From a virus (taxonomy: Duplodnaviria > Heunggongvirae > Uroviricota > Caudoviricetes): DNA of 13,572 nucleotides. The notes below the pieces were generated by a model. The model did not search any database. It had not been told where the DNA came from and saw only the letters and a list, made by a program, of their open reading frames with translations. The translations under genes were made by a program, and so were the position numbers. Shown piece after piece: positions 5,597-12,861 of the stretch. The DNA lies in the IMG/VR virus record IMGVR_UViG_2703719354_000003. One strand, written 5' to 3'. Within the stretch, counting starts at the first letter, position 1. The number at the start of each line of letters is the position of its first letter.

Positions 5597-6289
5597 ATGA
5601 CATTTTCAGAACGACTTGATTTAGCTATGCGCAACGCAAAATTTACGCAAGGTAGGCTGGCCAAAGAAGTGGGTATGGCTCAGTCCAGTGTTAATCAACT
5701 ACTTAACAAAGCCAACGGTTCCAGAAAAACAGTCGAAATAGCAAAAGTTTTGGGCGTTAACCCGGAATGGCTCGCATCGGGTGTTGGCCCAATGGAAATC
5801 GTGACCTCTGCAGACTCACACCAAATACGTAACATTTCTGAAGATTGGGTTACTGATTCGTATGTCGTGGATGTTTTAGACATCAGATATAGTTGCGGAC
5901 CTGGTAGTTATAACTCTGATTTTCCTGATATTGTCAGATCTATAGCGATAGAACCAGGATACGCATCAAGAGTTTTTGGCGGCAGACCAGCATCAGCAAT
6001 CAAAGCAATAAACGCCCACGGCGACAGTATGAAAGGCACAATAGACCCTGAAGACTTGGTATTTGTAGATGTATCAGTTCGCACATTTAATGGTGATGGT
6101 ATATACGCCTTTACATACTCTGGAACATCGCACATCAAAAGACTTCAAAAAATCAAAGATACTCTAACGGTGATATCTGACAACCCAGCTTACAAGGATT
6201 GGGCTATCGAACCGGAAGACTTCGAACAACTTCACATTGACGGAAAAGTAATTGTCAGTTGGCCTATGACACTACACCGTTTTGCATAA
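5597..6289 (+). CDS. cI: CI-like phage repressor (N-terminal XRE HTH plus C-terminal S24 LexA-like peptidase domain)
   Basis: HTH segment QGRLAKEVGMAQSSVNQLLNK; autocleavage signature AHGDSMKG with a downstream Lys (SHIKRL); divergent from the cro-like gene. Confidence 0.85.
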   Translation: MTFSERLDLAMRNAKFTQGRLAKEVGMAQSSVNQLLNKANGSRKTVEIAKVLGVNPEWLASGVGPMEIVTSADSHQIRNISEDWVTDSYVVDVLDIRYSCGPGSYNSDFPDIVRSIAIEPGYASRVFGGRPASAIKAINAHGDSMKGTIDPEDLVFVDVSVRTFNGDGIYAFTYSGTSHIKRLQKIKDTLTVISDNPAYKDWAIEPEDFEQLHIDGKVIVSWPMTLHRFA

Positions 6290-6307
6290 GCAAAAATCAT
6301 TTAACCC

Positions 6308-6334
6308 GCCCACTCTTAAGTGGGCTTTTTTTTT
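6308..6334 (+). terminator. Intrinsic terminator after the repressor gene
   Basis: GCCCACT-CTTA-AGTGGGC hairpin (6308-6325) followed by 9 T (6326-6334). Confidence 0.7.
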
Positions 6335-6342
6335 GGGAAAAA

Positions 6343-6384
6343 ATCGATAAACCGATTGACGGGTGAAATCGGTAAACCTATTAT
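6343..6384 (+). promoter_or_regulatory. Promoter TTGACG-17-TATTAT with overlapping operator-like repeats (pL-like)
   Basis: -35 TTGACG 6356-6361, 17-bp spacer, -10 TATTAT 6379-6384; ATCGATAAACCGAT (6343-6356) is a near copy of the 14-bp core of the switch-region palindrome (5548-5561); second inverted repeat ACCGATT-n9-AATCGGT (6351-6373) spans the -35 and spacer. Confidence 0.5.
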
Positions 6385-6433
6385 CTTGACATAGGTATCG
6401 AACTCACCAAAGCAATTATAGAGGATGAGAAAA

Positions 6434-6844
6434 ATGTCATCGTATATGGGATTACCAACAAATCAGCACGATGCTCTTGAGAATATTCAGCTCTTAGTAG
6501 GGACTGGTGCACTACTGTATAGCAGCAATAACCCTGAGTTAATTGAACTTGCCAGCTCCATCCTGGCTGTAACTCAAAAATATAGCCTCACCGCGTCACG
6601 TTTATGCAAACAAAATTTAGCTATTAATTCCCAGAATCGGATTCGCACCCAACGCGAAACCTGCGGCTTAACAACCGCCGAACTCGCTAGGCTGCTCGAT
6701 CTCGATGAAGAAATTATCATCCAGTGGGAGAGCGGAGAGTACGAACCAACCATCAGCATGCTTATCCCTCTGGCTAATGTTCTTGGCTGTGATCCAATGT
6801 TGTTATTGACTGATGCTTATAAACAAAATCAGGAGGAAGCATAA
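6434..6844 (+). CDS. Hypothetical protein with C-terminal XRE-type HTH (136 aa)
   Basis: C-terminal RIRTQRETCGLTTAELARLLDLDEEIIIQWESGEYEPTISMLIPLANVLGCDP resembles an XRE HTH; N-terminal about 70 aa unassigned; GAGGA RBS 8 nt upstream of ATG 6434 (the ORF-track start 6425 lacks an RBS). Confidence 0.65.
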   Translation: MSSYMGLPTNQHDALENIQLLVGTGALLYSSNNPELIELASSILAVTQKYSLTASRLCKQNLAINSQNRIRTQRETCGLTTAELARLLDLDEEIIIQWESGEYEPTISMLIPLANVLGCDPMLLLTDAYKQNQEEA

Positions 6845-6845
6845 G

Positions 6846-7037
6846 ATGAAAATGTTCAAAGGCCTTACCAACGAACCGGAGACAACTTTTCATCACATTG
6901 CCGTACTGCTTGAAGCGGGGTTAATCATTTCGGCTTCCGGTGATGAAGAATGTGATGAACTTTCGGATGATATCTTTTTACTGGCACAACAATACGCCAG
7001 AAGCGCATGCGATGCATTTAAGGAGCAAAGAACATGA
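6846..7037 (+). CDS. Small acidic hypothetical protein (63 aa)
   Basis: AGGAGG (6831-6836) 9 nt upstream of ATG 6846; start lies 1 nt after the upstream stop; acidic composition. The ORF-track start 6813 is an upstream extension. Confidence 0.5.
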   Translation: MKMFKGLTNEPETTFHHIAVLLEAGLIISASGDEECDELSDDIFLLAQQYARSACDAFKEQRT

Positions 7038-10994: not shown

Positions 10995-11113
10995 AAATCG
11001 AATACCAGGACGCCGCAGGAGGTGAATCAATGAGCTGGCCTGATGCAATCGTAACTCTGGGGGTGGTATTCGCAGTAGCGTTTGTTGTGTTCTCAATTTG
11101 TCGATGGGGATAA
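10991..11113 (+). CDS. Small single-pass membrane peptide (40 aa; alternative start at 11030 gives 27 aa)
   Basis: AGGAGG (11017-11022) 7 nt upstream of ATG 11030; in-frame ATG 10991 overlaps the upstream stop (ATGA); hydrophobic core AIVTLGVVFAVAFVVFSI. Below the ORF-track length cutoff. Confidence 0.4.
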   Translation: MKIEYQDAAGGESMSWPDAIVTLGVVFAVAFVVFSICRWG

Positions 11114-11117
11114 CCAC

Positions 11118-11360
11118 ATGTTCGCTTTGATTCAACGCGGTCAGATATACACGGACAGAGCCGGATACCCCGTGGTGATTACTCGCATCACTGAGCACTC
11201 AGTGTTCTTTCGACGGATGGACGGACGATCCGGGCGGGTACGCATTGGTGAGTTAAACTGCCTGTTCGAACATATTGACCACCAGGAGTACCGCAAAATT
11301 CTCGCGGACACTGAGCAGGAAAAGCACCTGAAAAAATTACGAGCCATAAAAAGGAAGTAA
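11118..11360 (+). CDS. Hypothetical protein (80 aa)
   Basis: ATG 11118 with GGGGA 8 nt upstream, 4 nt after the preceding stop; the ORF-track start 11082 is an upstream TTG. Function unknown. Confidence 0.5.
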   Translation: MFALIQRGQIYTDRAGYPVVITRITEHSVFFRRMDGRSGRVRIGELNCLFEHIDHQEYRKILADTEQEKHLKKLRAIKRK

Positions 11361-11363
11361 AGA

Positions 11364-11510
11364 ATGAATAAAGCATTTGAACAATGGGTCCACCAGCGTT
11401 ACGGCAATCGCTATGACCTGACGCGAGATGTTGACGGCTTCTACTGTCGTGAAGTTGTGAAGCGAATGTTTGACGTGTGGTGCCACTGCCGTGGGCTGAG
11501 TGTTATGTGA
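11364..11510 (+). CDS. Small Cys-containing hypothetical protein (48 aa)
   Basis: AGGAAG (11352-11357) 6 nt upstream of ATG 11364; fills the gap between flanking genes exactly; contains YCRE...WCHC, a possible metal-binding pair. Below the ORF-track cutoff. Confidence 0.4.
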   Translation: MNKAFEQWVHQRYGNRYDLTRDVDGFYCREVVKRMFDVWCHCRGLSVM

Positions 11511-11518
11511 GGTGATGT

Positions 11519-11728
11519 ATGGGGCTGGATTGCGTGCCTATATCAACCTACTGCCGCGACGCGGGAGAAACGGTTGATGCCGTTAACAAACGGATACAAA
11601 GAGGAATATGGAAAGAAGGGGTTCATGTATTAAAAGTCGACGGAGTTAAAGAACGCTGGGTCGACTTAATAGAGGTTTCAAAATGGGCAAGAAAGAACAA
11701 GGATTATTATCTCTGCCAAGAGGAGTAA
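11519..11728 (+). CDS. Excisionase-like small protein (assigned by position upstream of and overlapping int)
   Basis: 69-aa basic protein immediately upstream of and overlapping the integrase gene, the typical xis-int arrangement; sequence resemblance to excisionases is only tentative. Confidence 0.45.
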   Translation: MGLDCVPISTYCRDAGETVDAVNKRIQRGIWKEGVHVLKVDGVKERWVDLIEVSKWARKNKDYYLCQEE

Positions 11729-12861
11729 CTATTCGTAAGCATAAAACTGCTTCAACACTAGTTATCACTTTCACATATAAAGGGGTTCTTTGCAGGGAGC
11801 CCCTGTCTCGGCTTGAGGCAAATACACGTGGTATTAAATATGCTGAGCGCCTGCTAGGGGAGATACAAAATCAGATCGCCAGCGGAACGTTTGAATATGC
11901 GAAATATTTCCCCAGTTCCAAAAAACTGGAGTTATTCGGTGTAGTAAAGAAAACCAAAAATATTAAGTCCTATCTTGATGAATACCTGAAAATTTGCATG
12001 AACCGCAATCTGTCGCCGTCAACCATTGGCGGTTACGAAAAATGTCTATCAGCACTATCAGAACTACATAAACTACATGTAACAGAATTGACGCCTGCGG
12101 TACTAAAAAATTGGATAGCCAGCCGAAAAACTAAGCTGAAAACAATCAGGAATAACCTGTCATTTCTGCGCAGCGCCATTGATGAGGCTGTAACTGATGG
12201 CCTGTTGACTATTAACCCGGTAACTCTTGTCAGCGCCAGCCGGTATCACGTGGTCGACAGTAAACCGAACGCCGACGATTACGAAGTTGATCCGTTTGCG
12301 CCTGCGGAAACCAGTGCCATATATCAGCACTGCAAGTATCAGGAATGGCAGAATCTGTTCCGCTTCGCCTTCAATACAGGGCTACGCAGCTCTGAGCTAT
12401 GCGCATTACGTTGGACCGATATCGACTTTATAGGTAATACAGCGCACATACAGGCGGCCAGTGTCGTAGGGGTACTTAAAGGCACCAAGACAAAAGCCGG
12501 TACCCGTAAGGTGGAGCTGAACAGTGAGGCGCTGGCGGCCCTGCAGGCGCAGAAGCAATACACCTTTATGAAAAGTGAGTTCATATTCAGCGATCCGAAA
12601 ACGGGAGATCCCTGGACGAACGCCGACGCTATCCGTAAAAAAGCATGGGTGCCGACCCTGAAAAAAGCTGGTGTGCGCTACCGTAACCCGTACCAGACGC
12701 GCCACACATTCGCCACCAGACACATTAGCCAGGGTGTAAACCTTTTCTGGCTTGCCGGGCAGATGGGGCATAAGGGGCCGGAAATGCTGTTCCGCAATTA
12801 CGGTAAATACCTGGCTGAATACGACGGGAAAACCGCAATGGAATCTGGAATGAAGAAGTGA
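11683..12861 (+). CDS. int: Tyrosine recombinase / phage integrase (lambda-Int family)
   Basis: C-terminal catalytic signature: R in NTGLRSSELCALRW, H-x-x-R in RHTFATRHI, and the nucleophile Tyr in HKGPEMLFRNYGKY; N-terminal arm-type region; 392 aa. Confidence 0.9.
   Translation: MGKKEQGLLSLPRGVTIRKHKTASTLVITFTYKGVLCREPLSRLEANTRGIKYAERLLGEIQNQIASGTFEYAKYFPSSKKLELFGVVKKTKNIKSYLDEYLKICMNRNLSPSTIGGYEKCLSALSELHKLHVTELTPAVLKNWIASRKTKLKTIRNNLSFLRSAIDEAVTDGLLTINPVTLVSASRYHVVDSKPNADDYEVDPFAPAETSAIYQHCKYQEWQNLFRFAFNTGLRSSELCALRWTDIDFIGNTAHIQAASVVGVLKGTKTKAGTRKVELNSEALAALQAQKQYTFMKSEFIFSDPKTGDPWTNADAIRKKAWVPTLKKAGVRYRNPYQTRHTFATRHISQGVNLFWLAGQMGHKGPEMLFRNYGKYLAEYDGKTAMESGMKK

Follow-up and report, generated by a model that had tools for sequence, protein, structure and literature searches.

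The 13,572-nucleotide stretch analyzed here (hereafter the window; IMG/VR record IMGVR_UViG_2703719354_000003) covers the immunity genes, the replication genes, and the left arm of a temperate mosaic lambdoid phage, carried as a prophage and of the Fels-1/phi467 type, a reading to which we give a probability of roughly 80%. It is carried by gene identities, by synteny, by the absence of homologues of the lambda early genes, and by the recurrence of the same layout in other genomes; in addition, the leftward operon is predicted to work without N. An earlier note on the same DNA had drawn attention to the left arm, positions 5597 to 12861, and had left open whether it belonged to a degraded cryptic prophage, a non-canonical lambdoid lineage, or a satellite resembling a phage-inducible island. 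The second suggestion is correct, but the lineage is already known from Fels-1, the Stx2f phage phi467, and Eru1-type replication units. The missing lambda functions are the mark of this described lineage and not of a satellite or a decayed remnant. The immunity region and the rightward operon are composed as follows.

570 to 550, minus strand: canonical terminator downstream of Q
628 to 1029, minus strand: Q-type late antiterminator, 133 residues, intact (PF06530, E = 3e-52 over the full model; phrog_79)
1020 to 1877, minus strand: orf285, a 285-residue protein encoded after the primase and belonging to the Fels-1-type replication module (phrog_6204, E = 5e-182)
1877 to 2845, minus strand: Zn-ribbon/DUF7146/Toprim primase, homologue of Eru1B (Pfam PF08273, PF23639, PF13362)
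2847 to 4505, minus strand: superfamily 2 (SF2) DEAD/DEAH-box helicase, homologue of Eru1A (Pfam ResIII, DEAD, Helicase_C)
4506 to 4918, minus strand: conserved non-coding leader of 413 nucleotides (nt), the interval from orf102 to the helicase
4919 to 5227, minus strand: orf102, in the position of cII (phrog_852)
5190 to 5477, minus strand: Cro-like regulator of the YdaS family, first gene of the rightward operon (PF15943, E = 1e-14; phrog_35)
5528 to 5500, minus strand: promoter-like site at the Cro-like gene
5544 to 5565, no strand assigned: operator-like palindrome TTTATCGGAAAGCCGATAAA between cI and cro (OR), tied to the OL sites by repeat family D19
5597 to 6289, plus strand: CI-type cleavable repressor (Peptidase_S24, E = 7.5e-17, plus a helix-turn-helix [HTH]; phrog_4, E = 1.4e-53)
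6308 to 6325, plus strand: intrinsic terminator of the cI transcript, GCCCACTCTTAAGTGGGC followed by T9
6356 to 6384, plus strand: candidate pL, TTGACG-17-TATTAT (region 6342 to 6384), the best promoter match in the window, 10/12
6342 to 6357 and 6367 to 6382, plus strand: two operator palindromes overlapping candidate pL (inverted repeat I16, direct repeat D19)

The predicted pL/OL and pR/OR arrangement is lambda-like. As in lambda, cI and cro lie between divergent, operator-controlled promoters, and the two palindromes at pL are related to the one in the cI-cro intergenic region at 5544 to 5565; int and xis are distal in the pL operon, and Q precedes the late genes. In the scheme that we propose, a cleavable CI and a Cro-like protein would act between divergent promoters that share palindromic operators. 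The rightward operon would be read in the order cro, orf102, structured leader, SF2 helicase, Toprim primase, orf285, and Q, such that the phage would supply its own helicase and primase from an Eru1-related module instead of recruiting host DnaB through O and P, and the late genes would stay under the control of Q. Leftward transcription would start from the strong, operator-flanked promoter at 6356 to 6384 and cover 15 closely spaced genes before it reaches xis and int. Recombination and protection from RecBCD would presumably depend on the host, as no phage recombinase or RecBCD inhibitor of known families is present; lambda red gam mutants likewise rely on host recombination.

Compared with lambda, the window is without N, nut sites, CIII, Kil, Gam, Bet, Exo, CII, O, P, and the nin recombination genes, and more generally none of the sets N with nut, Red/RecET/Erf with Gam/Abc and CIII/Kil, or O/P is represented. 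The earlier note had stated that replication uses a helicase-primase pair rather than O/P, and this is confirmed: the SF2 helicase and the Toprim primase are present, and O, P, gp18, and gp12 have no homologue in the window by six-frame tblastn or in 80 related IMG/VR loci, which were chosen by a helicase at least 86% identical and searched at a homologue cutoff of tblastn E < 1e-4. The helicase is 66% identical to Eru1A of the Stx2a phage TL-2011c (510 residues), 84% to that of Fels-1, and 96% to that of phi467; the corresponding values for the primase are 58% (TL-2011c Eru1B), 95%, and 100%. Downstream of the primase, orf285 has 82% identity with its Fels-1 counterpart and 92% with that of phi467, and it is found in 72 of the 80 loci. 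The gene in the cII position, orf102, has homologues in Fels-1, phi467, and TL-2011c and accompanies the helicase module in every case (49 of 49 IMG/VR arms with full coverage); six-frame tblastn of the window gave no similarity between it and lambda CII or P22 C1.

Eru units replace O and P, and Eru1 phages have no homologues of N, CII, or CIII (Llarena et al. 2021, PMC8044961; see also PMC8951638). The window has an Eru1A-like helicase and an Eru1B-like Toprim protein in place of O/P, matched over nearly their full length, and TL-2011c shares with it the position of these two genes as well as an orf102 homologue and a G-rich leader upstream of them. However, the third gene of TL-2011c is eru1C (NinB/DUF1367), whereas the primase of the window is followed by orf285, for which no DUF1367 match was obtained. 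The BLASTn definition of Eru1 asks for more than 80% coverage and identity to TL-2011c eru1A to eru1C, which is not to be expected at 58 to 66% protein identity, and TL-2011c was not among the megablast matches listed for the replication part of the window. With a different third gene and no more than 58 to 66% protein identity, the replication module is, judged from its sequence, a relative of Eru1 and not a strict member of that type. The left arm of TL-2011c also differs: it spans 16 kb and still has RecT, an exonuclease, a Gam-like protein, Kil, and a single-stranded DNA-binding protein (SSB).

The closest parallels are Fels-1 (NC_010391) and phi467 (LN997803). Fels-1 has the same succession of int, xis, small open reading frames (ORFs), CI-like cleavable repressor, cro, orf102 homologue, a leader with a hairpin of the loop UUAAAGGU, helicase, primase, a 286-residue ORF, and Q, so that the synteny extends from cro to Q and to a short N-less arm ending in xis-int; the orf102-helicase-primase-orf285 run is 71 to 95% identical at the protein level. 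Between xis and the repressor, Fels-1 has 14 small ORFs in 3.7 kb and no N, Red, Gam, or CIII, and its arm includes homologues of orf119, orf71, orf130, the C-terminal half of the clamp protein, and orf48. It differs in its cI (49% identical, indicating another immunity specificity), its integrase, xis, and Q, its shorter arm without the genes for the 139-residue HTH protein, the ParE-like protein, the SPFH protein, and DUF4222, and an extra 122-residue ORF in the leader. Fels-1 is induced by mitomycin C via cleavage of its CI-like repressor, expresses its left operon on induction, and is infectious, lysogenizing new hosts (PMC3121763). Among phage records phi467 comes closest, covering 58% of the window at 90.7% DNA identity, with a replication run that is 92 to 100% identical; the majority of the arm genes recur in it in unchanged order. 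Unlike the window, phi467 carries stx2f, a cI only 38% identical, another Q, and an extra 122-residue ORF upstream of the helicase, and it is without the SPFH pair and orf130.

Two further phages have arms of this kind. In phiP27 (NC_003356, Stx2e), a 4.5-kb xis-to-cI arm without N or Red shares with the window the HTH protein, the membrane protein and SPFH lipoprotein (84% and 98% identity), DUF4222, and orf48, although its replication genes are of the DnaC/DnaB type, its tail is contractile with sheath and baseplate, and orf119 and the ParE-like gene are missing. Fostie, an environmental isolate with a complete genome of 38 kb, has a 3.4-kb arm beside a related helicase-primase-Q module. Early regions without N, Red, and O/P are documented in Fels-1, phiP27, and Eru-type Stx phages. 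With the lack of lambda functions already published for this replicon class and near-identical sequences in public databases, the region is to be regarded as already known; for annotation, it should be labeled as the Fels-1/Eru1-related early module of a complete temperate phage, not as a satellite or a deletion remnant. The left arm of Gifsy-2 (1 to 7300) is also short and without annotated N, consisting of int, xis, one ORF, recT, recE, three small ORFs, and the repressor, from which we conclude that N-less early-left operons are common among enterobacterial lambdoid prophages.

The left arm of the window, with the elements that follow it, reads as follows.

6425 to 6844, plus strand: HTH_3 protein of 139 residues, first pL gene, at the position of N (PF01381, E = 2e-10; phrog_4836)
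6813 to 7037, plus strand: small ORF related to the N-terminal part of the 139-residue HTH protein (phrog_4587; RefSeq start 6846)
7034 to 7225, plus strand: ORF of 63 residues (phrog_6882, E = 1e-40)
7410 to 7769, plus strand: orf119, conserved core arm gene (phrog_1737)
7769 to 7984, plus strand: orf71, homologue of Fels-1 STM0898.2n (phrog_340; an anti-repressor family is matched weakly)
7956 to 8174, plus strand: ParE-like toxin-domain protein, 72 residues (PF24732, E = 3e-17; in RefSeq, ParE family toxin-like protein)
8171 to 8563, plus strand: orf130, a basic protein (phrog_1886)
8624 to 8812 and 8809 to 9636, plus strand: cargo pair of a 62-residue membrane protein and a 275-residue SPFH/Band-7 lipoprotein (phrog_1130; PF01145, E = 8e-31; phrog_200)
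9680 to 10429, plus strand: ORF6N-domain protein, labeled anti-repressor in PHROGs (PF10543, E = 1.6e-12; phrog_1726, E = 1e-69)
10426 to 10994, plus strand: beta-clamp-domain gene, frameshifted (ORFs 10426 to 10785 and 10713 to 10994)
10991 to 11510, plus strand: three small ORFs, namely, one of 40 residues, DUF4222 (11082 to 11360), and one of 48 residues (11364 to 11510) (PF13973, E = 1e-13; phrog_285; phrog_3871)
11519 to 11728, plus strand: excisionase, xis (phrog_2917, E = 2.5e-41)
11683 to 12861, plus strand: tyrosine integrase, int, with an arm-binding domain (PF12167, PF00589; phrog_1)
12874 to 12891, both strands: bidirectional intrinsic terminator, the first canonical one downstream of pL on the plus strand
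13462 to 13572, no strand assigned: end of an IS3-family element, truncating the gene downstream of int (100% identical to an IS3 copy in Escherichia coli E110019)

The placement of cI, xis, and int in the earlier note agrees with the ORF list and with our profile searches. Its distance of about 6.5 kb is a fair figure (5.2 kb from the cI stop to the xis start, 6.1 kb from the cI start to the int start), and its roughly 14 ORFs compare with 15 in our count, one of them a frameshifted pseudogene. The term "compact," in contrast, holds only in relation to the phage chosen for comparison, the equivalent interval being 8.1 kb in lambda, 3.7 kb in Fels-1, and 4.5 kb in phiP27. The central statement, that no arm ORF resembles N, Red/RecET, Gam, or CIII, stood up in profile, tblastn, and structure tests. 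At E ≤ 0.01, neither Pfam nor PHROGs matched any arm protein to N, Exo/Bet, RecE/RecT, Erf, Gam, Abc, Kil, or CIII, and the small arm ORFs without assigned function had no match to those families in Pfam even at E ≤ 10; profile searches, which the earlier note had named as the way in which divergent N, Exo/Bet, Gam, or CIII genes might come to light, matched none of them. Six-frame tblastn of the window with 47 early proteins from lambda, P22, and TL-2011c gave matches at the expected place only for int (3e-11) and, weakly, for the HTH of cI (lambda cro, E = 0.001; lambda cI, E = 0.034), and five further matches under E = 0.05 were all without biological correspondence. The same six-frame searches found no fragments or scars of lambda-type genes in the window.

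Several individual proteins were considered as hidden counterparts of the lambda functions and rejected. The first pL gene encodes an HTH protein that is not N-like by Pfam, PHROGs, or tblastn; it has a weak DicA-like match and is absent from all 19 short-arm relatives described below. Its PHROGs label "CII-like" is not borne out either, the protein being repressor-like in its HTH and without likeness to lambda CII or P22 C1. The PHROGs label "RusA-like Holliday junction resolvase" for 10426 to 10994 was likewise set aside: residues 5 to 114 of the intact homologue match DnaN domain II (E about 0.003), and RefSeq names this homologue a beta-clamp-domain protein. As this is a beta-clamp-domain gene, no recombination function is hidden there. 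A Gam- or Abc-like role for orf130 was dismissed, since its low-confidence AlphaFold2 (AF2) model (pLDDT 67) gave no fold match and its sequence no match in PDB; its homologues are confined to Enterobacteriaceae and all unnamed, and it is 56% identical to Fels-1 STM0898.1n. The SPFH lipoprotein was not accepted as a CIII-like modulator of FtsH, its matches to HflK/HflC being weak and this cargo being absent from most relatives; HflK and HflC are themselves FtsH modulators. PADLOC detected no defense system in the window beyond generic HTH matches.

Did a once lambda-like prophage arrive at this arm by decay? If so, the genes for N, recombination, and CIII would have been deleted from it. The arm, counted as present when at least 80% of it lay in one place, occurs in 51 of 5,426 complete E. 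coli genomes. Within the 80 IMG/VR loci, none of lambda N, cIII, kil, gam, bet, exo, ea10, ral, O, P, ninB, or ninG was found, none of P22 gp24, c3, kil, erf, arf, or abc1/2, and none of TL-2011c recT, exo, gam, kil, or ssb. An integrase lies upstream in 49 of these loci, at a distance from helicase start to int start of 4.1 to 8.5 kb (median, 6.6 kb; 7.2 kb in the window). The same gene order without N, Red, and Gam is kept in the 51 genomes and also in the 49 loci, which have different int, cI, and Q modules, and the same kind of arm is found in Fels-1, Fostie, phiP27, and phi467, which argues against degradation as the cause of compactness. Moreover, 19 relatives have a minimal arm about 2.5 kb shorter, in which orf119, orf71, and the gene for the ParE-like protein are the sole arm genes of the window to be detected between cI and xis. 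The arm of the window is therefore an expanded, cargo-bearing version of a naturally short arm, with orf119, orf71, and the ParE-like protein as its conserved core and, as exchangeable cargo, the HTH regulator, the SPFH lipoprotein with the small membrane protein, the ORF6N protein, the beta-clamp-domain gene, and DUF4222. Neighboring ORFs in it overlap or directly adjoin one another, much as the genes of an intact operon do.

Damage that would favor decay does exist. Aligned to the intact gene of 189 residues in JNEC-KY202, the beta-clamp-domain gene has lost one G near 10662, both in the window and in E. coli E110019, the best genomic match at 99.9% identity. The last 111 bases of the window are an IS3 end, and the N-terminus of the 211-residue ORF at 12903 to 13538 (minus strand) is insertion sequence derived because of this IS3 truncation beyond int. 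E110019 is more damaged: the same IS3 sequence interrupts its arm at another site, equivalent to window position 11166, and frameshifts or stops affect its portal, large terminase, Q, and a TerB gene. Its Q pseudogene has one extra C at window position 984, while Q of the window is intact. Decay of the window copy is minor, one frameshift and an IS3 end, and deletion from a lambda-like ancestor is in our view a very unlikely origin of the arm. The intact clamp-like protein, at 189 residues, is of half size, and we record its occurrence in a prophage arm as a side observation.

A satellite, equipped with int, a repressor, and a primase-helicase replicon but dependent on a helper phage for its particles, is extremely unlikely, even though the region is compact, much of it is accessory cargo, and the Zn-ribbon/Toprim primase is P4-alpha-like according to Pfam and a note in the Fels-1 record. 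Q and its terminator are present in the window. In E110019, the region is part of a full-length prophage in which Q is followed by lysis and structural genes, and its own holin, lysozyme, spanin, terminase, portal, capsid, and tail genes are contiguous with it, as they are in JNEC-KY202. Fostie and Fels-1, with the same module, are complete phage genomes of 38 to 43 kb. Genes for AlpA, capsid-size redirection, and helper interference were not detected with Pfam, PHROGs, or PADLOC, and neither an AlpA-type activator nor a lack of own virion, lysis, and packaging genes thus sets the element apart as a satellite.

The complete genomes also reveal how a mosaic lambdoid phage of the Fels-1/phi467 type is put together. 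In JNEC-KY202, the module of immunity, replication, and arm genes recurs next to lambda-like head and tail genes, with a different int and Q. In EC2 and FDAARGOS_1283, the region lies within prophages with further combinations of int and Q and, in EC2, also of cI, all of them integrated at yecE. Lambdoid prophages are mosaics, and this swapping of int, Q, and cI modules among copies is classical lambdoid mosaicism.

How, then, could transcription from pL reach int without N? No canonical terminator was found on the plus strand between 6326 and 12874, and of lambda-type nut sites there is no boxB, with boxA-like matches at chance level and on the wrong strand. Because no canonical terminator follows pL until after int and lambda-type nut sites are missing, the leftward operon most likely needs no N-type antiterminator. 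Readthrough from pL to int without one would be helped by the overlapping or abutting genes, which limit entry of Rho, and by a leader of only about 40 nt. Rfam gave no match within the arm; its sole match in 5597 to 12861 was a sub-threshold Trp_leader at the cI terminator (6254 to 6333). The -35 hexamer of pL at 6361 is TTGACG in the window versus the consensus TTGACA in E110019.

Some observations weigh against the assignment to an N-independent, complete temperate phage. Rho-dependent terminators, which the tools used do not predict, might lie, for example, in the 184-nt gap at 7226 to 7409, and several weak, irregular hairpin-plus-U sites occur within coding regions. Seven arm ORFs have no assignable function, and a non-homologous analogue of N, Gam, or CIII may be among them. 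Late genes of the genome from which the window comes were not recovered: an IMG/VR twin contig that is 100% identical to the window, frameshift included, stops about 1 kb beyond Q and was not among the results of a capsid-based scan. Finally, with portal and terminase pseudogenized in E110019, the copy in the window may not make particles.

The leader upstream of the helicase is sharply conserved. In it, a tandem pair of hairpins, which have the 8-nt loop UUAAAGGU in common and differ in their 7-bp stems (4879 to 4899 and 4905 to 4925, minus strand), sits at and just after the stop codon of orf102. The motif occurs 3 times in the window versus 0.39 expected; it is present in 1 to 2 copies upstream of the helicase in all 68 related loci with enough upstream sequence and nowhere else in 2.1 Mb of related IMG/VR loci. 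Four positions of the stem have changed on both sides, and single changes are accommodated by G-U pairs on the transcribed strand. The leader folds better than shuffled controls (z = -3.1), and Rfam gave no match to its hairpins. It further contains a G-rich tract, GGGGAAGAGGGTAAGGGGGGTAAGGGGGGATTGGG (about 4768 to 4822, minus strand), similar in kind in phi467, Fels-1, and TL-2011c, and it has this tract and a GGTTA-GTAGATC box in common with TL-2011c, in which the UUAAAGGU hairpin is missing. A conserved mini-ORF of 19 codons, MKTTSQNYYLISTGAAQWS (4555 to 4496, minus strand), has a stop that overlaps the helicase start. The extra ORF of about 122 residues in the leaders of phi467, Fels-1, and TL-2011c is not found in the lineage of the window. 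All 413 nt are inherited together with the replicon, and the hairpin/G-rich element may serve replicons of the Fels-1/Eru1 type, which are also present in highly virulent Stx phages, as an origin or as a regulatory RNA.

Might this element stand in for N? One possibility is non-homologous control of antitermination or replication, with orf119 acting on the UUAAAGGU-loop RNA hairpins. The conservation of both partners speaks for it: no other arm gene is as well conserved as orf119 (46 of 49 covered arms), which has invariant R10, R12, R23, and K24 in a predicted Arg/Lys-rich N-terminal helix, and the hairpin is universal in the loci examined, with compensatory stem changes and G-U wobbles on the transcribed strand. 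However, the leftward operon has no copy of the hairpin and no evident terminator follows the hairpins, orf119 is compact and confidently folded, unlike the disordered N proteins, and TL-2011c has the helicase module yet neither the motif nor orf119. Three loci keep the replication module and the hairpins without orf119, which argues against an obligatory partnership. We regard this pairing as very unlikely. A broader version, in which hairpins and G-rich tract form an undescribed control element of Fels-1-type phages that replaces N/nut, is perhaps read by orf119 or orf102, and couples the early-left operon to expression or loading of helicase-primase, or in which the leader is an unmapped origin, is a long shot.

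Among the arm proteins of this Fels-1/phi467-type phage, orf119 was modeled by AF2 as an alpha/beta protein (pLDDT 90, pTM 0.81), and as it is confidently folded, it is not an N-like disordered protein. The model had no match in PDB or in the viral structures of BFVD, so that it would represent a confident new fold relative to these two collections. We discarded orf119 as a divergent N on account of its compact fold without PDB/BFVD match, the lack of a nutL-like site, and the three loci without the gene. The core trio of orf119, orf71, and the ParE-like gene (7410 to 8174), the last of which is present in 19 of 19 short arms, travels with the replicon across dozens of phages. The product of orf71 matches Fels-1 STM0898.2n (E = 4e-9). 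The trans-acting antirepressor of Fels-1, fsoA, was mapped between STM0896 and STM0897 (Lemire et al. 2011, PMC3121763); from this interval and from weak similarity to Gifsy-2, we infer that STM0898.2n is fsoA. The link of orf71 itself to the Gifsy-2 ORF beside dinI is weak (E = 6e-6; hhalign probability, 48%), and default BLASTP gave no alignment. Taken at the level of sequence, orf71 may be tentatively named a probable small antirepressor of the FsoA/GftA type.

The small membrane protein and the SPFH lipoprotein, which have 84% and 98% identity with their phiP27 counterparts, also occur in many records of Stx2a phages, which label the lipoprotein as "serine protease," and the SPFH gene is matched on E. 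coli plasmids as well. A literature search for SPFH prophage proteins returned nothing relevant. At the opposite end of the window, Rfam matched the STnc100 small RNA family at 1 to 78 on the minus strand (48.7 bits versus a gathering score of 47; E = 4e-8), a match that is cut by the window start and lies downstream of Q and its terminator.

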